Part shown: one piece after another, positions 5,587 to 62,045 of the stretch
Position numbering within the stretch: position 1 is the first letter of the stretch
How the letters are laid out: every line of letters begins with the position of its first letter
Assembly: GCA_959598745.1 (NCBI GenBank)
Contig: CAUGFN010000001.1
Coordinates: 3,713-67,712 of the forward strand
DNA from: an uncultured Eubacteriales bacterium
GTDB lineage: Bacteria; Bacillota; Clostridia; TANB77; UBA1234
DNA length: 64,000 nt
Direction of reading: 5' to 3'
The notes under the pieces: generated by a model
Told to the model about the DNA's origin: nothing
Database searches by the model: none
The model's input: only the letters and a program-made list of their open reading frames with translations
Made by a program: the position numbers and the translations under genes

Positions 5587-7179
5587 GTGGACGATATTTT
5601 TACTAGAGAAATGATTGTCCCTTCTATTATTGTCGCTATTATTACAGCAGCGATTGTAATTTTTATTTTCTTTTTGCTAGAAAAAAATAAGACCAAAAAA
5701 GGGTTATCTAAAATCAAAAATGCCGAAGAAGAAGCTGAAAGATTAAAGAATGAAGCTAGAAACAAGGCATCAGAGATTGTTAGAATAGCTGAGGCAGAAA
5801 GGAAAGAAAAAGTTATTTTAGCTAAAGAAGAAATACAAAAAGAACGTGGAGATTTAGAAGGCGAAATAAGAGAGAGAAGGGCAGAAGTAGCAAAGCAAGA
5901 GAAGAGATTACTTCAAAAAGAAGAGACTTTAGATAAAAAAATCGAAAAATTAGAAGGAAAAGAAATTGAGTTATTGGATAAGGAACGAAAATTAGAAGAA
6001 GAAAAGGACGAACTTGGAAAATTTAAGGACAAGCAATTGGCTGAATTAGAAAGAATTTCTGGTTTATCACAAGAAGAAGCGAAAAAATATCTTCTAAGCA
6101 CATTAAATGAATCTTTGGCACATGATCAAGCTGTTATGATAAAAGAGTTTGAGAATAAGACAAAGGAAGAAGCTAACAAGAAAGCGAAAGAGTTAATTAC
6201 TTATGCAGTTCAAAAGTGTGCGGCTGACCATACATCTGAAACTACAGTTTCTGTTGTACCTTTGCCAAGCGATGATATGAAAGGTAGAATTATCGGAAGG
6301 GAAGGTAGAAATATCAAAACTCTAGAAACTCTAACTGGAATTGATTTGATTATTGATGATACACCAGAGGCTGTTATTTTATCAAGCTTCGATCCTATAA
6401 GACGTGAGGTTGCTAGAATAGCTCTTGAAAACCTAGTTACAGATGGTAGAATTCATCCTGCTAGAATAGAAGAGATGGTGGAAAAAGCCAAAGAAGAACT
6501 TGAAATTATAATCAAAGAAGAAGGCGAAGAAGCATCTATGGAAACTGGTGTTATAGGCTTACATCCAGATGTAATTAAGCTAATTGGCAAGTTAAAATAT
6601 AGAACAAGTTATGGACAAAATGTATTAAATCACTCTATAGAAGTTTCGCAATTGGCTGGTATTATGGCAGAAGAGTTAGGATTTGATCCTAAGCTTGCAA
6701 AAAGAGCGGGATTACTTCATGATATTGGTAAAGCAATAGACCATGAAATAGAAGGTACACATGTTGAAATTGGTGTTGACATCCTTAGAAAATATAAGGA
6801 AAGTAATGCTGTTATCAACGCAGTACAAGCTCACCATGGTGATGTTGAGCCATTAACAATGGAGGCTGTCTTAGTTCAAGCAGCAGATGCAATCTCTGCT
6901 TCGAGACCAGGTGCTAGAAGAGAAACTTTAGAGAATTATATTAAGAGACTTGAAAAATTAGAAGAAATTGCTGATTCTTTTGAAGGCGTTGAAAAATCTT
7001 TTGCAATTCAAGCAGGTCGTGAAGTTAGAATAATTGTAAAACCTGAAACTATTGATGAAGACAAGATGACAATTATGGCAAGAGACATTGCAAAGAGAAT
7101 AGAAGAAGAAATGGATTATCCAGGACAAATAAAAGTAAATGTTATAAGAGAGACTAGAGCAATAGAATACGCAAAATAA
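5587..7179 (+). CDS. rny: Ribonuclease Y
   Basis: N-terminal TM helix, long coiled coil, KH domain ([11 protein letters not shown]) and HD domain (LLHDIGK...HH). Start codon uncertain (GTG at 5587 or ATG at 5611). Confidence 0.9.
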
Positions 7180-7302
7180 AAAAGTAGGAGATGAACTTAG
7201 AAGGTTTGTCTCCTTTTCTTTTTATTTAAATTATGATATACTTTGAAAGGTAGGAAAATACTCTATTAAAAGTATTTAGTATGAATGTTAAGGAGGCTAA
7301 TT

Positions 7303-8079
7303 ATGAATTTTTTAATTATTGGAGATATCGTTGGAAAAGTTGGCATCGAAGCTGTTAAGAAAAACATATCAAAACTAAAAGAAAAATATAATATAGATTT
7401 TACAATAGCTAATGGTGAGAATTCAGCAGATGGTATGGGAATTACTAAGAATATAGTAAATGATCTATATGCATGTGGGGTTGATGCAATAACAATGGGA
7501 AATCACACATGGGGAAAGAAGGATATTTTCTCATTTATAGATGAAGATGAACGATTAGTTAGACCAGCAAATTATGCAGAAGGAGTATGCGGAAAAGGCA
7601 GTATATTACTACACTCAAAAGACAAAAAGATTGGTATTATAAATTTAATTGGTAGAGTGGATATGGGCGGAAGTTATGATAGTCCTTTTGTTGCTGCTGA
7701 TAAAGAGGTTGATAAGCTAAAGAAAAATGGTGCAGATATAATTATTGTTGATTTTCATGCTGAAGCTACTGCAGAAAAAATTGCACTTGCATATTATTTG
7801 AAAGACAAAGTTAATATTTTTTTTGGAACTCATACTCATGTACAAACAGCAGACGAGAAGATATATGATACAGGAATGGGATACATAACAGACGTTGGTA
7901 TGACGGGACCTAAGAATTCAATTATAGGTATGAATATCGAAGCAGCAATGAAAAGATTTTTGACACAAATTCCGGAAAGATATTCTTGTGCAGAAGGACC
8001 ATTTATGTTAAATGGCGTTGTATTTAACTTTGATGAAATAAGTAAAAAGGTAACGGATATTACAAGAATAAGTCTATAA
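7303..8079 (+). CDS. ymdB: YmdB-like metallophosphoesterase (TIGR00282 family)
   Basis: MNFLIIGDIVGK...GNHTWGKK motifs; conserved position after rny; AAGGAGG RBS. Confidence 0.85.
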   Translation: MNFLIIGDIVGKVGIEAVKKNISKLKEKYNIDFTIANGENSADGMGITKNIVNDLYACGVDAITMGNHTWGKKDIFSFIDEDERLVRPANYAEGVCGKGSILLHSKDKKIGIINLIGRVDMGGSYDSPFVAADKEVDKLKKNGADIIIVDFHAEATAEKIALAYYLKDKVNIFFGTHTHVQTADEKIYDTGMGYITDVGMTGPKNSIIGMNIEAAMKRFLTQIPERYSCAEGPFMLNGVVFNFDEISKKVTDITRISL

Positions 8080-28629: not shown

Positions 28630-29037
28630 TTGGAAACAACAGCACAGCGGTTAGCAGACATTGAGGAAGTATGGTTAGAAAACGCAGGAGATGTGGCATG
28701 TATTTCGAACCAGTGTGGTATAAGCCAAGGGATGGTGTATTACACAATGCGGAAATATTGCTATAAAAATGGGAAGGACTATCAAAGCTATCTTAGACAT
28801 CCGCATAAACCACATAAACCATATGAACGGCATGTTTATAAGACGCAAAAAAGTGCATCATTAGGAAGAATACAAAGGAAAGAGTACATTCTGACGAAAA
28901 CAAGCGAAGAAATGTCTGAGCAAGTAAGTGAGCTACTTAAAAGTTCGAGTAGTAAAGACATTCTTGCAGGAATTGACTTGCTCATCAGGATGGTTGAAAA
29001 GGAGATTTGTAGAAATGGGAACAACATTGTACATTAA
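28630..29037 (+). CDS. GC-rich ORFan 1 (135 aa, TTG start, HTH-like segment)
   Basis: GAAGGAGG RBS; HTH-like ISNQCGISQGMVYYTMRKY; repeated HKPHKPY. Roughly 41% GC against ~30% background. Confidence 0.45.
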   Translation: METTAQRLADIEEVWLENAGDVACISNQCGISQGMVYYTMRKYCYKNGKDYQSYLRHPHKPHKPYERHVYKTQKSASLGRIQRKEYILTKTSEEMSEQVSELLKSSSSKDILAGIDLLIRMVEKEICRNGNNIVH

Positions 29038-29908
29038 TGGTCGTTCTAAGGAATTAAGGTCCATCAGAGAGTACGTCAAAGCAGGATATACAAAGACGCA
29101 ACTCGCCAACGAGTTTAACTGCTCGGCAGAAACGTTTCTCGAAGCTTTGAAGGAAAAGACTGGTGTCAGATTCAAGGAGTACAACCGTGATTTGGAGCGA
29201 AATGAAAGTCGGTATAAGAGAAAAACAGGTCTTGAGATAAAGAGAAAAGAGGTAAATAGTATGTCAGAAACAACTGAAATCATTGAAAGCGAGCCGAATG
29301 TGAGTTACGAAAAGGAAAGTGCTCCGACGTTCCGGAATCGCGAAAGCGAACTAAACGAGCAGGCGGAGGAAAGCAAAAAAAATCTTTCTGAGATGAAAGA
29401 AAAACTTGAAAGAGCCAAAGTAAATCTCACAGAAATACAAAATGAAAAAGAAGAGATTCGAAACAAGGCTAACCAATGCAATGAAGAGTACGTGAGACTA
29501 AAAGTGGAGTTAGAAGAACTCAGAAAGAGTTTTGCCGAAGTTACTGCGCGATTAGAGACTCGTAAGGATGATGTCGAATCTTTGGAACATAATATAAGCG
29601 AAGAAGAAGAAAAGCTCTACAAAATAAACAAAGAGCTTGAAAGCTACAAGACGGTTGAAATCTATTGTGATGAGACCGGGTTCCACATCTCAAACGTGGA
29701 ATATATGCCTGACGATGATACCATCGATGAAATTCTTTGCAAACTGCGTAAAGATCCTAGGATGGAGCAGTATATGTTCAAAACGGTCCAGAACGTTGCT
29801 AAAATAAAGGCAGCCATCGCACTTGTGGAGATTGTCGGATTGGTGGAGTATTCTGTACAGCTCGAAAAGTGCAGTAAGGATGTTCAGGACGCATACTCTT
29901 GCGATTGA
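29015..29908 (+). CDS. GC-rich ORFan 2 (about 297 aa: N-terminal HTH-like domain, long coiled coil, C-terminal Cys-containing domain)
   Basis: AAGGAG-N9-ATG at 29015, overlapping the 3' end of ORFan 1. Coiled-coil heptads; weak hairpin after the stop. Confidence 0.45.
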   Translation: MGTTLYINGRSKELRSIREYVKAGYTKTQLANEFNCSAETFLEALKEKTGVRFKEYNRDLERNESRYKRKTGLEIKRKEVNSMSETTEIIESEPNVSYEKESAPTFRNRESELNEQAEESKKNLSEMKEKLERAKVNLTEIQNEKEEIRNKANQCNEEYVRLKVELEELRKSFAEVTARLETRKDDVESLEHNISEEEEKLYKINKELESYKTVEIYCDETGFHISNVEYMPDDDTIDEILCKLRKDPRMEQYMFKTVQNVAKIKAAIALVEIVGLVEYSVQLEKCSKDVQDAYSCD

Positions 29909-54269: not shown

Positions 54270-54650
54270 TTATTTTGCAAAATCGTATGGATGGCGCTGG
54301 TGAATTTCTTCGTTGATGATTGCGAGGAGTGTGGATTTGCAATTAAGATTGCTATCCTTAATTGCCTTGATGGTTCCGAGAAGTTCGGCATACTCTTCAG
54401 TCTGGCAAATTGCTTCGCGGTCGCTCAAGTAGTCAAGTAACTTCTTGTCTATAGTGTACGAAACTCTATCGTGTCCATAAACAAGCAATTCTAGAGCTCT
54501 TACATTCTCCTTCGGAGAACAAGTGAAGTTGTATCTCCATTCATGGGCGTCTTCAGACCAACAGGAATTTTCGTCAGCCACCCTCATTGTTGCATTTCTT
54601 CCATCCTTAACCATTACAATGGTTCGCTTTAAATTTGCCAACATAGACAA
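54270..54650 (-). CDS. GC-richer ORFan (126 aa), minus strand
   Basis: AGGAGG-N8-ATG on the minus strand; promoter TTGATT-17-TATAAT; bidirectional terminator at about 54205-54235. Roughly 42% GC. Confidence 0.4.
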   Translation of the reverse strand: MSMLANLKRTIVMVKDGRNATMRVADENSCWSEDAHEWRYNFTCSPKENVRALELLVYGHDRVSYTIDKKLLDYLSDREAICQTEEYAELLGTIKAIKDSNLNCKSTLLAIINEEIHQRHPYDFAK

Positions 54651-57800: not shown

Positions 57801-59199
57801 AGGCGCAATAAGAATCAGAATAAGATCGCTTTTAGCAAGTATGAATAAGCATGAAACTTGTATAGTGCCAAAAGAAACTCAAGTTGGCGAATATGAAATA
57901 GAAAAAAAGATATTTGATAAAGAAATGAAAAAAGATTATACAATATTGATACCGCAAATGGCACCAATACATTTCGAGTTATTGCAAGCAGTACTTAGAA
58001 AATATGGATATAATGTTAAACTGCTTCGTGAGTGTACAGCACATACGGTAGAAGTAGGACTAAAATATGTTAATAACGATGCATGCTATCCATCAATATT
58101 AACGACAGGACAAATGATAGAAGCACTTGAATCTGGTGAGTATGATGTGGAAAAAACAGCGCTTATGATGTCACAAACTGGTGGAGGTTGTAGAGCAACA
58201 AATTATATAGCTTTCATTAGGAAAGCTTTAAAAGATGCTGGATTTACAAATGTACCTGTAATATCATTTAACTTTAGTGGTATGGAGAAAATGCCAGGTT
58301 TTAAACTTACACCAAAGATGATAGACAAACTATTAAAAGCAGTTGTGTATGGCGATTTATTGCAAAAACTATTGCTAAAAAATAGAGCTTATGAAGTACA
58401 CAAAGGTGATACAGAAGAAACATACGAAAAATGGATGGCAAAATGCAAAGATATCCTAGAAAACGGAAGTATAAAAGATTTCAGAAAAAGTATTTATGAA
58501 ATGGTTGAAGATTTTGAAAAGATAGAGGTTAATTTGTATCAAAGAAAGCCGAAAGTGGGAATAGTTGGAGAGATTTTAATAAAATATCATCCATTTGGAA
58601 ATAACAACATAATAGAAAAGCTAGAAGCAGAAGGTGCAGAAGTTACAATGCCAGACTTCATGGGATTTGTAAAATATGCGGCAACACCGAGCATAACATG
58701 GCATAAACTAATGAACTTGGACAAAAACAAATCAGAAATATTCAAATTTGCACTTAAAATAATAAACTCATTTGAAAAAGACTCTCGTAGAGCACTTCAA
58801 ATGTCAAATAGAGATTATTTATTACCAATAGATATATGGAAGTTATCAGAAAAAGTCGACAAGATATTGTCGCTTGGAAATCAAACCGGAGAAGGCTGGT
58901 TCTTAACAGCAGAGATGATAGAGTATATAGAACATGGAATTGACAACATAGTTTGCGTTCAGCCATTTGCGTGTCTTCCCAACCATGTAGTGGGTAAAGG
59001 AATGATAAAGAAAATAAGAAGCAAATATCCAGAGGCTAACATAGTGCCAATTGACTATGATCCAGGTGCAAGTGAAGCAAATCAAACTAATAGAATAAAG
59101 CTGATGATGACAGTTGCAAAGGATAATATGCCAAAAACAGAAAATATAAAGAAAGATTTTTATAGTGAAAAACAAACTATTTTAGAAACAAAAAAATAA
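54892..59199 (+). CDS. CoA-substrate-specific enzyme activase fusion (two BadF/BadG/BcrA/BcrD-type ATPase domains plus a 2-hydroxyacyl-CoA dehydratase-like domain), 1435 aa
   Basis: Two acetate/sugar-kinase-type ATPase N-termini (IGLDVGSTTVK..., LGIDAGSTTSK...) followed by a large C-terminal domain. Matches the large activase-related proteins known from Clostridia. Confidence 0.7.
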   Translation: MKRVLHIGLDVGSTTVKVIVMDESLKIIYSSYERHFSDTKNTVCTCLENLIEKFPGYDFNIALTGSGAMFVSKLLDLPFIQEVISCKRAVEKYIPRTDVVIELGGEDAKIIYFDKSIEQRMNGTCAGGTGAFLDQMALLLDTDTQGLNELAKKHNTIYPIASRCGVFAKSDIQPLLNEGAAKEDIAASIFQAVVNQTISGLACGRPIKGNVAFLGGPLNYLPELRKRFIETLKLSDDEIIIPEDAHLFVAKGAALDSVNYNAINAEKLRAKIQMLKYAHDDTTVPLNPLFTVDAEYEEFKKRHEADKIKRKPLNNYKGDAFLGIDAGSTTSKLVLISSDGKLLYESYKSNEGSPLQSVIKMMEKLYDVLPKQVTIRYAGVTGYGEKLIQSALNIELNEIETIAHYSAAKKFMPNVTSIVDIGGQDMKYISIKDGAIDNIMLNEACSSGCGSFIETFAKSLNLSIQKFVDEAIKARKPVNLGSRCTVFMNSKIKQAQKEGYTVGDISAGLSYSVIKNAIQKVMKVRDVATLGDNIVVQGGTFYNDAVLRAFEIIVGKNVVRPDIAGLMGAYGVAILAKEKFDALNDKNYVSKVFKKDELETLTVSITHTRCKGCENNCFLTINEFSNGKKFISGNRCEKGAGRDKANLNLPNMYAYKYKRIFDYEPLSEEKAYRGTIGIPRVLNMYEDYPFWFTFLTKLGFRVLISEKSNRKTYEKGMESMPSESVCYPAKLSHGHVMSLIEQGIKTIFYPCVPYSRKEFKDSDNHYNCPIVISYPEVLKNNVEELNEIKFINSFLPFDTKKLVKTILELPEFSEYRFSKSELTEAAEEAEKEYQKCKKDILEKGKETLKYINDNNLKGIVLAGRPYHIDPEINHGIDKMITSLGLCVLTEDSVAGLVEPKRPLRVVDQWTYHARLYAAADFVGKHENIELVQLNSFGCGVDAVTTDQVEEILKSFGKMYTLIKIDEVNNLGAIRIRIRSLLASMNKHETCIVPKETQVGEYEIEKKIFDKEMKKDYTILIPQMAPIHFELLQAVLRKYGYNVKLLRECTAHTVEVGLKYVNNDACYPSILTTGQMIEALESGEYDVEKTALMMSQTGGGCRATNYIAFIRKALKDAGFTNVPVISFNFSGMEKMPGFKLTPKMIDKLLKAVVYGDLLQKLLLKNRAYEVHKGDTEETYEKWMAKCKDILENGSIKDFRKSIYEMVEDFEKIEVNLYQRKPKVGIVGEILIKYHPFGNNNIIEKLEAEGAEVTMPDFMGFVKYAATPSITWHKLMNLDKNKSEIFKFALKIINSFEKDSRRALQMSNRDYLLPIDIWKLSEKVDKILSLGNQTGEGWFLTAEMIEYIEHGIDNIVCVQPFACLPNHVVGKGMIKKIRSKYPEANIVPIDYDPGASEANQTNRIKLMMTVAKDNMPKTENIKKDFYSEKQTILETKK

Positions 59200-59369
59200 G
59201 ATATTTCACAGACAAAGTTATAGGTTTAAAATAAATATGCCATAGAAAAAGTGAAATTGACATAAATAAAGATAAATGGTATAATGAATCTGTGCTTATA
59301 TCTTTATACACTCCTTGGCAGCATGTATGGACATAAGTAATATTTGATAATTAAAAGGAGAAAAACGTT

Positions 59370-60038
59370 ATGCAACAATGGATGACCAATTACACAGAGG
59401 TGCAGTTAGAATTCTTGGACTACAAGCGAGAAATGGAAAGCTTACCTTGGCAGGAAAGAGAGCACGATTATAGGCTTTCAAGGGAACTGTACGTAAGTAT
59501 AAAACACCAACTTCGTGACAAATTCCCGAGAACAGCAATGTACACCTCTAACGAGCGACTTTTGGATTTTTCCGAAAAGCTTGCGAGCATGGTCGAGGAC
59601 TATCAAGTGGCTGTGATGTCTTATGAGGCATTGGCACAGGTTGTGGCTGAACAGAGTTACCGGATTCGTCCGATTATAGGAATAATCCGGAAAGACGAAC
59701 TCTTTGCACTTGTGGATAAGAGAGCAAGGATAATCGGTGTTCACGTACCGAAAAGCAAGAAACTGAAAGCTTTGGAACAGAGAGTAGAGAAAGCTTTAGT
59801 GCAGCTTGATGGCTTCATTACGGGGAAAGGTGGAACACCTAACGCGTTCGTCCGTGTGGCTCTCGAAAACTTTATTTTCGAACAGAAGCATGATTCCAAT
59901 GTGCCGGAAATCAAGATTGTTGCCGTAAAAAAGCCGATTAAAGGAGGCAAAGAGGTTGACATCCGTGGTTTTGGAGGACTTCAAATGAGCTTCAAGGTAT
60001 TTGAAGGAAGAGAGGTAGTATATTACCATATCATTTGA
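59370..60038 (+). CDS. GC-rich ORFan (222 aa)
   Basis: Promoter TTGACA-17-TATAAT (59266-59294); AAAGGAG RBS; terminator GCAGTGAGA...TCTCACTGC followed by TTTTT (60040-60075). Roughly 45% GC. Confidence 0.4.
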   Translation: MQQWMTNYTEVQLEFLDYKREMESLPWQEREHDYRLSRELYVSIKHQLRDKFPRTAMYTSNERLLDFSEKLASMVEDYQVAVMSYEALAQVVAEQSYRIRPIIGIIRKDELFALVDKRARIIGVHVPKSKKLKALEQRVEKALVQLDGFITGKGGTPNAFVRVALENFIFEQKHDSNVPEIKIVAVKKPIKGGKEVDIRGFGGLQMSFKVFEGREVVYYHII

Positions 60039-60161
60039 TGTCGCGAAAGCAGTGAGATTTTTCTCACTGCTTTTTGAATATGTCACCATTGAAAAAAATA
60101 TAAAAGTATGATATAAGTATATCTATGTAAACAAGAATATAAGAAAAGAGGATTAGATATT

Positions 60162-61802
60162 ATGAGTAAAGAATTAGCGGAATTGATGTTTCCAAATATC
60201 GACAAAACGCCAGATTATTATGAAAAATTATATCCAAAAAGAAATTTGCCAGAAGGTGCTGTTGTAACACGTTTTGCACCTAGCCCAACAGGTTTTATTC
60301 ATGTAGGTTCACTTTTTGGAGCAAATTTAGATAGAAGATTTGCCACACAAAATAATGGTATATGCTACTTAAGAATAGAAGATACTGATGGAAAAAGAGA
60401 AGTTGAAGATGGCATAAACTTAATTATAAATGGCTTGAAAGTATTTGGCATAGAGTTTGATGAGGGACCTATCGATGGAAAAACAAAAGGCGATTACGGT
60501 CCATATATTCAAAGTGAAAGAAAAGAAATATATCAAACATATGCTAAAGATTTGGTTGAAAAAGGATTAGCTTATCCATGTTTCTGCAGTGCAGATGAAC
60601 TTAACCAAATTAGAGAAAGACAAGAAAAATTAAAAATAGTGCCTGGATATTATGGAGAATTCGCAAATTGTAGAAAATTAAGCGAGGCCCAAATGGTAGA
60701 AAGAGTTAAAAATGGAGATCCATTTATAGTTAGACTTAAATCTATGGGAAGCACATCTAAAAAAATTAGATTTAAGGATATGATAAGAGGAATAATTGAA
60801 TTTCCAGAGAATGTACAAGATGTAGTAATCATAAAATCTGATGGACTTCCAACATACCATTTTGCACATGCAGTTGATGATCATTTGATGAGAACAACAC
60901 ATGTTGTAAGAGGTGAAGAGTGGTTGCCATCAGTTCCAATCCATGTAGAATTATTCAAAACACTTGGATTTGAAATGCCAGAATTTATTCATACACCAAC
61001 AATAATGAAAGAAGATGGCGGAAGCAAGAGAAAGATAAGCAAAAGAAAAGATCCAGAGGCTGCAGCGTCATATTATAAAGAAAACGGAATACCAAAAGAG
61101 GCAGTTATAGATTATCTTATGAATATACTAAATTCTAACTTCGAAGAATGGAGAAAGAATAATCCACACGGAGATTTAAAAGAATTCAAAATAGATTTAA
61201 ACAAGATAAGTTCAAGTGGTGCTTTATTTGATTTAGTAAAATTAGCAGATGTATCCAAAAATACAATCGCAACATTTACAGCTGAAAAGGTATATGAAGA
61301 TGGTCTTGAATGGGCAGAAGAGTTTGATAAAGACTTAGCAGAACTTATGAAAAAGCATAAAGAATTTACAATTAATATTTTAAATATAGAAAGAACAGGA
61401 ACAAAAATAAGAAAAGATATAGCTAAATGGTCAGAGCTAAGAGAAAACCTTGAGTATTTATATGATGAAGTATTCTTTACAAAAGAGCATGAAGATGAAT
61501 GGCAAAATATAACAGATAAAGAAGAAATTAAGAAAATAATAACAGAGTATTTAAATGTATATGATGAAAATGACGATAAGGATACATGGTTTAACAAAGT
61601 AAAAGATGTTGCAGAAAAATTTGGTTATGCTAGAGAAGTAAAAGAATATAAGAAAAATCCAGAGAATTATAAAGGCCATGTTGGAGACATAAGCACAGTA
61701 ATAAGAGTGGCACTTACTGGAAGAAGAAATACTCCAGACTTATACGAAATACTTAAAAATCTTGGAAAAGAGAGAATTGAAAAAAGATTTGCAAGAATAT
61801 AA
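60162..61802 (+). CDS. gltX: Glutamate--tRNA ligase (long form)
   Basis: RFAPSPTGFIHVG (HIGH region), RIEDTD, KISKRK (KMSKS-like). Confidence 0.8.
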   Translation: MSKELAELMFPNIDKTPDYYEKLYPKRNLPEGAVVTRFAPSPTGFIHVGSLFGANLDRRFATQNNGICYLRIEDTDGKREVEDGINLIINGLKVFGIEFDEGPIDGKTKGDYGPYIQSERKEIYQTYAKDLVEKGLAYPCFCSADELNQIRERQEKLKIVPGYYGEFANCRKLSEAQMVERVKNGDPFIVRLKSMGSTSKKIRFKDMIRGIIEFPENVQDVVIIKSDGLPTYHFAHAVDDHLMRTTHVVRGEEWLPSVPIHVELFKTLGFEMPEFIHTPTIMKEDGGSKRKISKRKDPEAAASYYKENGIPKEAVIDYLMNILNSNFEEWRKNNPHGDLKEFKIDLNKISSSGALFDLVKLADVSKNTIATFTAEKVYEDGLEWAEEFDKDLAELMKKHKEFTINILNIERTGTKIRKDIAKWSELRENLEYLYDEVFFTKEHEDEWQNITDKEEIKKIITEYLNVYDENDDKDTWFNKVKDVAEKFGYAREVKEYKKNPENYKGHVGDISTVIRVALTGRRNTPDLYEILKNLGKERIEKRFARI

Positions 61803-61847
61803 TAAAAATTGTTGACAACAAATAATAAATGTTGTAGAATAATAAAC

Positions 61848-61961
61848 GTGGTGAGGATATAGACGAGGTCACACCTGTTCCCATACCGAACACAGAAGTT
61901 AAGCTCGTATGTAGCCGAAGATAGTAATGGGTCGCTCATTGTGAAAATAGGAACTTGCCGC
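61848..61961 (+). rRNA. rrf: 5S ribosomal RNA (orphan; no 16S/23S nearby in this window)
   Basis: GGTGAGGATATAGACGAGGTCACACCTGTTCCCATACCGAACACAGAAGTTAAGCTCG... matches the conserved 5S core. Own promoter TTGACA-17-TAGAAT at 61812-61840. Confidence 0.75.
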
Positions 61962-61969
61962 TTTTATAT

Positions 61970-62045
61970 TCCTCTTTAGCTCAGTTGGTAGAGCGTCCGG
62001 CTGTTAACCGGCAGGTCGTAGGTTCGAGTCCTACAAGGGGAGCCA
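61970..62045 (+). tRNA. tRNA-Asn (GTT), CCA encoded
   Basis: Cloverleaf: acceptor TCCTCTT/AAGGGGA, D arm GCTC-AGTTGGTA-GAGC, anticodon loop CTGTTAA, T arm GTAGG-TTCGAGT-CCTAC, discriminator G plus CCA. Confidence 0.85.

Follow-up and report, generated by a model that had tools for sequence, protein, structure and literature searches.

A GC-rich single-gene cassette upstream of gltX in uncultured gut Clostridia and its conserved leader hairpin

In this study, we analyzed one gene and its control elements within a window of 64,000 nucleotides (the whole stretch of DNA under analysis) from an uncultured Eubacteriales bacterium, and compared them with related loci, designated here by L numbers. 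The region is self-contained and holds one gene, insulated by a promoter and a terminator that serve it alone; members of the gene family occur only within one clade of uncultured AT-rich gut Clostridia. Comparison of the loci shows that, throughout the clade, the gene has been inherited together with a promoter close to consensus, a covarying hairpin at the 5' end and an intrinsic terminator. The leader, a conserved structured element, is the most informative feature of the locus. The locus is the cassette of a real, fast-diverging cytosolic protein, placed 5' of gltX; tentatively, we read its mRNA as one that would be abundant and stable with its translation held down. The cassette is not evidence of a new biological system.

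Architecture of the cassette and its place beside gltX

The coding sequence (59370-60038, + strand, ATG start) encodes a 222-aa soluble alpha+beta protein of an uncharacterised family and lies between a CoA-activase gene and gltX, where the first-pass annotation had recorded a 222-aa open reading frame. That annotation also listed a TTGACA-17-TATAAT promoter, an 80-nt leader, an AAAGGAG ribosome-binding site and a hairpin followed by TTTTT, and all of these features were recovered. Specifically, a sigma-A-type promoter at 59257-59285 (+) matches the consensus at 12 of 12 positions (TTGACA at 59257-59262, a 17-nt spacer, an extended -10 TG at 59277-59278 and TATAAT at 59280-59285) and is the sole perfect site in the 1.7 kb scanned. 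The features placed within the annotated span of 59266-60075 therefore stand, but its start does not; since 59266 falls within the promoter, the true start is 59257. The TTGACA-17-TATAAT arrangement is kept in seven related loci (L001, L007, L021, L010, L012, L015, and L016), and L014 and L017 carry variants of it close to consensus. The leader between the -10 box and the ATG measures about 78-84 nt, and the Shine-Dalgarno (SD) sequence AAAGGAG (59354-59360, +), read from the sequence 9 nt 5' of the ATG, is kept in all family leaders.

Downstream of the gene, folding and an inverted repeat place an intrinsic terminator at 60045-60076 (+), with a 12-13-bp stem, a UUUU loop and a U-run. It consists of a perfect 12-nt inverted repeat (60046-60057 / 60062-60073) followed by a T-run, and its fold of -19.7 kcal/mol corresponds to z = -6.6 against shuffles; the consensus terminator scanner did not list it. 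The terminator stem of L001 carries a compensatory G-C to A-U change, and a strong hairpin with a T-run, unrelated in sequence, occupies the terminator position in every family member. At the downstream edge of the cassette, the motif TTGAAA-17-TGaTATAAG (60089-60117, +), also read from the sequence, is a putative separate promoter of gltX, which the scanner left unlisted because its last base is G; the motif recurs 5' of gltX in L001, L012, and L016.

The gene had been described as about 45% GC with G/C-rich third codon positions, and our measurements agree with this, giving a GC of 0.435 and a GC3 of 0.462 for the coding sequence, compared with 0.31 and 0.22 for the window and 0.31-0.33 and 0.18-0.21 for the flanking genes. 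Composition is thus not uniform along the window; the GC3 of the gene ranks top among the 43 window ORFs of at least 150 aa (mean 0.218, sd 0.063) and exceeds their mean by about 3.9 sd. Codon choice differs strongly from that of the host (CCG 0.71 vs 0.08; CAG 0.58 vs 0.11), CGN makes up 50% of the arginine codons vs 8% in the host, and amino-acid usage shows more Arg, Gln, and Val and less Asn. The leader, the terminator and gltX beside the coding sequence are not enriched in GC.

All homologues were found on AT-rich contigs of gut Clostridia. Hosts were surveyed by scanning genomes with the C-terminal part of the adjacent CoA-activase, which returned only uncultured gut Clostridia MAGs, namely UBA4698, UBA1234 and relatives of Clostridium sp. 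CAG:245, CAG:273, and CAG:571, as well as bins from Hadza, Nepal, rabbit, goat, and chicken guts. Wherever the downstream DNA was visible, the family gene stood directly 5' of gltX, an adjacency seen in the window and in L001, L007, L021, L022, L012, L014, L016, L108, L109, L110, and L112. The gene is present at the same site in 12 or more related loci, and calling it isolated proved incorrect, as synteny extends to relatives with a GltX identity of only 72-83%. The upstream neighbour is usually the same BcrAD/DUF2229 CoA-activase, with a DUF4435 gene in L014 and an M23 peptidase plus two unknown genes in L010 as other neighbours, and the surroundings of the family gene are housekeeping genes. 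Where the CoA-activase is only 66-72% identical, many different genes lie 3' of it, and not gltX. In L019 and L020 the CoA-activase is 96-97% identical, but the downstream genes and the CoA-activase C-terminal tail are other ones; since the family gene is anchored to gltX, which lies elsewhere in these two contigs, they do not count as evidence for absence of the gene. Between close relatives, only 31-54% of the DNA just 5' of the promoter can be aligned, which marks the 3' end of the CoA-activase gene as a rearrangement point. In L022, an extra 119-aa ORF, for which neither a homologue nor a domain was found, stands between the leader and the family gene.

A small protein family without recognisable domains

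An exhaustive HMMER search of 1.84 billion cluster representatives returned 16 proteins at E <= 1e-3, 13 of them at E <= 1e-10. The matches are 214-232 aa long, cover the protein over its full length and show 28-35% identity; a word-indexed search had reached just three clusters (98, 96, and 68% identity). The earlier label of ORFan, meaning a gene with no homologue, consequently has to be withdrawn in favour of a small family of about 16 clusters, clustered at 50% identity. Fifteen full-length homologues can be aligned from one end to the other. They retain the length and frame of the ORF although amino-acid identity is down to 25-35%, and share the motif YFALIDExARxIGVYIPKSxRQ, the invariant residues G104, P127, and A142, and the C-terminus LYYHI. 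Family members are unnamed in every source and were seen only in metagenome assemblies, the exact window protein being present on 25 contigs. In these two respects the gene resembles the lineage-specific hypothetical genes of gut Clostridia MAGs, but it differs from them in its conserved leader RNA, its fixed gltX anchor and the GC3 excess of the whole family.

The family gene is under purifying selection, as indicated by dN/dS values of 0.088 (window vs L001) and 0.10 (window vs L021). An AlphaFold2 model built on the 15-sequence alignment reached a pLDDT of 88.9 and a pTM of 0.77, in which the N-terminal residues 1-75 form a helical bundle and residues 76-222 an alpha/beta domain; the C-terminal domain modelled alone gave a pLDDT of 92.7. 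Taken together, the dN/dS of about 0.09-0.10 and the pLDDT of 89 show the protein to be real.

The statement that the protein has no recognisable domain was borne out, as Pfam, PHROGs, NCBIfam, and PADLOC gave nothing significant for the window protein or for all 15 aligned members. One family member matched AbiEi weakly in PADLOC (E = 0.035), without a match for the window protein. Strong homology to a known conserved protein did not appear in the structure searches either. A profile search of PDB sequences returned nothing below E = 0.1, and Foldseek gave no match at E <= 0.001 for the full model against PDB and BFVD or for the C-terminal domain against PDB, the best matches having E values of 0.04-0.14 and TM <= 0.26. 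The family is thus a compact one with a confident AlphaFold model and without a detectable relative in PDB or BFVD.

Several known folds were considered and rejected. For a PD-(D/E)xK nuclease the order of secondary structures is compatible, but the position of the acid is V/I (V-P-K, residues 126-128); nucleases were not among the Foldseek matches of the window protein model. The resemblance of G104-x11-D116-E117 to a Pol-beta nucleotidyltransferase or RelA-SpoT fold is superficial, with no G[GS] and with adjacent acids, and the Foldseek matches to TUT7, GLD-2, and SpoT had E values of 0.08-0.5 and TM < 0.2. The VOC (glyoxalase-bleomycin-resistance) fold comes nearest in that residues 79-125 form one beta-alpha-beta-beta-beta unit and VOC proteins are the top, non-significant Foldseek matches (E >= 0.08, TM <= 0.26, rmsd 14-17 A). 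However, a second complete module and a metal-ligand motif are absent from the window protein, and with a best E of 0.14 and TM <= 0.26 for the domain-only model, VOC superfamily membership was rejected as well.

The family diverges fast. Its dN is 12-14 times that of gltX in three pairs (window-L021, window-L001, and L108-L014) and 34 times in L112-L022, where GltX is 98% identical and the family proteins are 32% identical. At the same gltX dS of 0.64, the family dN was 0.20 in one pair and 0.57 in another, which means that the divergence is not clock-like. In addition, the gene occurs twice in tandem in L012; a leader precedes each copy, and the first copy is split into two ORFs. Paralogue sorting or allele replacement may have contributed to the divergence.

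The leader hairpin and the control of translation

Covariation defines a conserved 5'-proximal hairpin at 59293-59339 (+), drawn from the leader alignment and RNAalifold as an outer stem P1, an inner stem P2 and an apical loop of about 13-21 nt. In P1, GCUUAU (59294-59299) pairs with AUAAGU (59333-59338), and P2 lies inside it. The hairpin starts 9 nt past the -10 box in 8 of 8 leader types compared (the window, L007, and L021 counting as one type), and transcription is predicted to start at about 59292. The 80-nt leader remains recognisable among members with 25-35% protein identity, including L010 with its different upstream context, and it is more conserved than the coding sequence, as the hairpin is 100% and the CDS 90% identical between the window and L021, and 83 and 71%, respectively, between the window and L001. 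Unpaired loop bases are conserved as well (a GCAAC motif), and 9 leaders share an invariant CA.C. A leader peptide (ATG TAT GGA CAT AAG TAA in the window) was rejected, since it is not conserved in L001 or L015.

Among 15 distinct sequences, 92.6% of the cells in the alignment are paired and 4 of 9 pairs have changed on both sides (AU/UA/GC at one pair and UA/GC at another). None of 500 shuffles reached the observed covariation score, and pairing falls to 17-53% when the partners are slid by 1-3 columns. G-U pairs occur on the + strand only, such as UG in 8 sequences at pair 17/54, and the distance between the hairpin arms varies among leaders; these two observations favour an RNA structure over a DNA operator. 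When the window, L015, L010, and L112 leaders were each folded independently, the same arrangement of P1, internal loop, P2, and large apical loop resulted. The individual hairpins fold no better than shuffles (z = -0.3 to -1.6), and so the support is comparative and not thermodynamic.

A covariance model, R1, found the hairpin 5' of every family copy, including six unseen ones (the first copy of L012 at 61.9 bits, L109 at 56.3, L108 at 56.1, L013 at 50.8, L112 at 38, and L110/L111 at 32.4). Elsewhere in the window it found nothing (next best 20.8 bits, E = 0.26), and over 895 kb of related loci there were no matches beyond the family leaders. The weak match of L022 (26.6 bits) is a genuine leader, followed there by the 119-aa ORF mentioned above and then the family gene. 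When JGI metagenomes were scanned with the leader pattern, 9 stretches came up; L105 is the single real one among them, and it precedes the same gene family. Rfam 15 had no match at E <= 1 in 59100-60300 and none at the leaders of 9 other loci, and at gathering score it returned only 5S rRNA and tRNA in the whole window. The hairpin is accordingly a candidate RNA motif outside Rfam, not described before, with covariation support.

The apical loop always contains a pyrimidine tract complementary to the SD; in the window this is CUCCUU (59311-59316, +), a candidate anti-SD by virtue of that complementarity. The loop-SD duplex amounts to -5.7 to -11.9 kcal/mol in 13 of 13 distinct leaders, with a mean of -8.0, whereas 40 host genes evaluated with identical geometry gave -4.3 (Mann-Whitney p = 4e-5, for leaders that share ancestry). 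In L112, CCCC pairs with a GGGG SD, the only clear covariation event for the loop-SD contact. The loop-SD helix forms in both the MFE and the centroid folds of the whole mRNA, and together with P1 and P2 it would make a pseudoknot-like contact. The hairpin probably masks the ribosome-binding site. As a general observation, any CU-rich loop pairs with an SD.

The reading that we tentatively prefer combines these elements as follows. Transcription would start about 2 nt 5' of the hairpin and thereby give a 5'-terminal stem. In Bacillus mRNA decay, a stem in this position protects against 5'-end-dependent decay, and the stem of the cassette should protect its mRNA in the same manner. The CUCCU of the loop would pair with the SD about 40 nt downstream and limit the loading of ribosomes, and the host-rare codons could slow translation further. 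The net outcome would be an abundant, long-lived, poorly translated mRNA, which would suit a protein tolerated only at low dose or released on a trigger. In type I toxin mRNAs, such as aapA3 of Helicobacter pylori, structures of the 5' UTR sequester the SD (PMC6733600). The leader appears similar to these in having a CU-rich anti-SD upstream within a structured leader, with translation presumably off and the promoter active, but type I toxins are small membrane peptides with an antisense RNA antitoxin, whereas the product here is a 222-aa soluble protein. Because the toxins of type I systems are hydrophobic and shorter than 60 aa, membership of a type I toxin-antitoxin system was rejected for this 222-aa soluble alpha+beta protein; the promoter scan identified no antisense gene or promoter at the cassette. 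A perfect promoter with restrained translation makes a coherent picture, and other readings of it are possible.

A somewhat unlikely but serious alternative is that the gene codes for an ordinary, constitutively expressed accessory protein, that the hairpin only stabilises the mRNA with an incidental loop-SD match, and that the GC content stems from a non-adaptive process, for example GC-biased gene conversion at a frequently recombining locus. In favour of this, a dN/dS near 0.1 is nothing unusual, the gene sits among housekeeping genes, and the upstream DNA, hypervariable and rearranged in close relatives, fits recombination, as does the divergence that is not clock-like. Stabilising stem-loops at the 5' terminus are known from the ermC and aprE leaders of Bacillus, and the stem here likewise begins only a few nt after the predicted 5' end, at a constant spacing of 9 nt to the -10 box. 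The difference is that the loop sequence here (CUCCU and the GCAAC bases) is conserved beyond what a stabiliser needs, the 5' end being a predicted one. As to the GC content, recombining bacterial genes tend toward higher GC (PMC4450053). Nevertheless, the leader, the terminator and gltX do not share the enrichment. A GC3 of 0.46-0.54 against 0.2 is, to our knowledge, a shift far beyond the effects reported for gene conversion.

Returning to the preferred reading of restrained translation, we consider it doubtful that the protein is a conflict or stress effector, our likeliest guess, made because of its fast evolution, tandem duplication and restrained expression, which are its sole basis; the absence of PADLOC and PHROG matches, the housekeeping surroundings and the ordinary dN/dS of 0.1 stand against such a role. 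Similarly doubtful is the most far-reaching version of the argument, in which the 5' hairpin and SD pseudoknot would be a new, signal-responsive class of cis-regulatory RNA serving a family with a new fold, with selection and not ancestry keeping host-rare, G/C-ending codons in genomes of about 30% GC to provide a further level of control over expression, so as to form a 'poised mRNA' module for a dose-sensitive effector beside gltX.

We consider it unlikely that the leader is a small ligand- or factor-sensing switch, such as a pseudoknot riboswitch or an operator bound by a protein or sRNA, that gates the SD. The preQ1 and SAM-II riboswitches are characterised by a small hairpin, a loop pairing with the downstream SD and conserved unpaired loop bases. 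Members of this pseudoknot type act on translation by burying the SD (PMC7641330; bioRxiv 10.1101/2024.05.09.593440). The leader shares these properties, for it has a small covarying stem enclosing a conserved loop with the invariant unpaired CA.C, the loop is complementary to the downstream SD, and the geometry permits an H-type pseudoknot with it. In addition, the conservation of the leader above that of the fast-evolving protein suggests contact with something conserved in the host. However, known riboswitch classes usually serve several gene families. The present element is conserved, structured and covarying, but it serves one gene family in one clade and not several families or lineages, it lies outside Rfam 15, and its fold is small and weak.

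It is very unlikely that the transcript is a dual-function RNA whose abundant 5' hairpin additionally targets, in trans, the SD regions of further mRNAs. Firmicute sRNAs such as RNAIII and RsaE/RoxS do this with C-rich loops, and the very strong promoter, the conserved apical CUCCU loop and the higher constraint on the leader than on the protein are in keeping with such a role, but no terminator lies between the hairpin and the CDS, and a separate short transcript or targets are unsupported. If the preferred reading of a stable, poorly translated mRNA is true, the leader adds to the translational control elements of gut Clostridia, which are barely studied as the hosts are uncultured.

Codon usage and the origin of the gene

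The GC of the coding sequence is above that of the rest of the locus by 5-18 points in all 14 intact family copies measured, the exception being the split first copy of L012 (0.314 vs 0.315). L110 is the extreme case, with a GC3 of 0.54 in a locus of 0.28 GC. Host-rare, GC-rich codons are a trait that the entire family shares. In the comparison of the window with L001, dS is saturated at 2.3, and GC3 is 0.42-0.46 in both. Synonymous sites are saturated and yet GC3 stays high, and recent transfer is therefore rejected as the cause; the recent foreign import that the high GC had implied in the first-pass annotation does not hold. Candidates for the upkeep of the G/C-ending codons are selection (for codons rare in the host or for a stable mRNA), GC-biased gene conversion, and recurrent import from a source unseen in any collection. 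Polarised substitutions, used as a test of amelioration, comprise 30 AT-to-GC vs 15 GC-to-AT changes and show no excess of the latter; the test is weak, as the flanking genes have the same parsimony bias. An atypical GC3 kept in a vertically inherited gene despite saturated synonymous divergence makes this a clean natural case, and a possible test case for rare-codon selection vs biased gene conversion. It also cautions that a GC-rich gene in an AT-rich genome is no proof of recent transfer.

The explanation that the cassette is a recently acquired foreign ORFan, imported from a donor of higher GC, is accordingly highly improbable, although its codon and amino-acid usage are atypical of the host. 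Apart from the persistence of high GC3 at saturated synonymous sites, the gene is syntenic with relatives out to a GltX identity of 72%, and neither bracketing repeats nor mobility genes were found at the cassette. Neither tblastn of phage and plasmid collections nor scans of viral contigs, three with a single protein and one with the leader pattern, gave a match, and no family member was found in a GC-rich host.

That the gene is not protein-coding, but a structured non-coding RNA or a chance ORF, can practically be dismissed; GC-rich islands within AT-rich genomes often point to structured RNAs, but the dN/dS of 0.09, the ORF length and frame kept among distant homologues, the confident AlphaFold2 model, a folding z of -1.5 for the CDS that equals that of gltX, and the lack of an Rfam match all speak against it. 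With the same z of -1.5, mRNA structure within the CDS was rejected as the cause of its GC-richness as well. The whole mRNA folds with z = -3.75, a value that probably comes mainly from the terminator hairpin.

Variable junction downstream of the CoA-activase gene

The last ~15-20 codons of the CoA-activase gene, the usual upstream neighbor of the GC-rich 222-aa family gene, were hypervariable together with the following spacer (window 59120-59250), and between 31 and 54% of this stretch could be aligned in close relatives. In two related loci from other gut Clostridia, L019 (4400-4800) and L020 (6900-7200), the CoA-activase was 96-97% identical, yet its gene was followed by other genes, namely rpsO-pnp or a series of small unknown ORFs. 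The 3' end of the CoA-activase gene and its spacer thus look like a recombination or rearrangement breakpoint; misassembly of the MAGs may also account for the differing downstream DNA in L019 and L020.

Arrangement of the family gene among relatives

Several related loci departed from the usual gene order. In L022 (UBA1234), an additional 119-aa ORF (7150-7509) lay between the conserved hairpin-bearing leader and the family gene, which started 13 nt after it; this ORF contained no domain and had no homolog among 5.8 billion proteins. This arrangement of leader, 119-aa ORF and family gene is a two-gene operon variant. The family gene was tandemly duplicated in L012 (790-2409) as well as in L013, each copy having its own promoter and leader, and the first copy of L012 was broken into ORFs of 130 and 85 aa, a sign of a frameshift, of a pseudogene or of misassembly. 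In L014, the CoA-activase gene was replaced as immediate upstream neighbor by a DUF4435 gene (315-1055). DUF4435 is a Toprim-like domain known from some defense systems, and this was the sole defense-flavored neighbor among the family-gene loci seen. Additionally, L112 carried a long, near-perfect palindromic hairpin (23-137) that matched plant miRNA-precursor models on both strands, with scores of ~40 bits that fell short of the gathering score. This hairpin probably represents a large inverted repeat rather than a miRNA.

gltX and other features of the window

At window 60077-60161, gltX was preceded by a short leader and by its own putative promoter of the extended -10 type (TTGAAA-17-TGaTATAAG). 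Neither a T-box nor any other Rfam element was present there, and the promoter motif was found again upstream of gltX in distant relatives. Directly 3' of gltX (window 61847-62045), a solitary 5S rRNA gene (61847-61963; 70.8 bits) was followed by tRNA-Asn(GUU) (61970-62045); the window contained no 16S or 23S rRNA genes.

The second composition outlier of the window was the region 28630-29908. Its ORF 29015-29908 (297 aa from ATG, or 326 aa if the GTG at 28928 is used) had a GC of 0.407 and a GC3 of 0.443, ranking second in GC3 among the 43 ORFs of at least 150 aa, and its Pfam matches were all weak, to coiled-coil models and, at the N-terminus, to a resolvase-type HTH_7 (E = 0.01). The ORF overlapping it from upstream (28630-29037) appeared atypical in composition as well. 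A local GC peak of 0.43 (window 54300-54600) coincided with a pair of small, functionally uncharacterized ORFs on the minus strand, located between the hibernation-factor and CoA-activase genes and ~121-125 aa long in the related loci L001 and L007.
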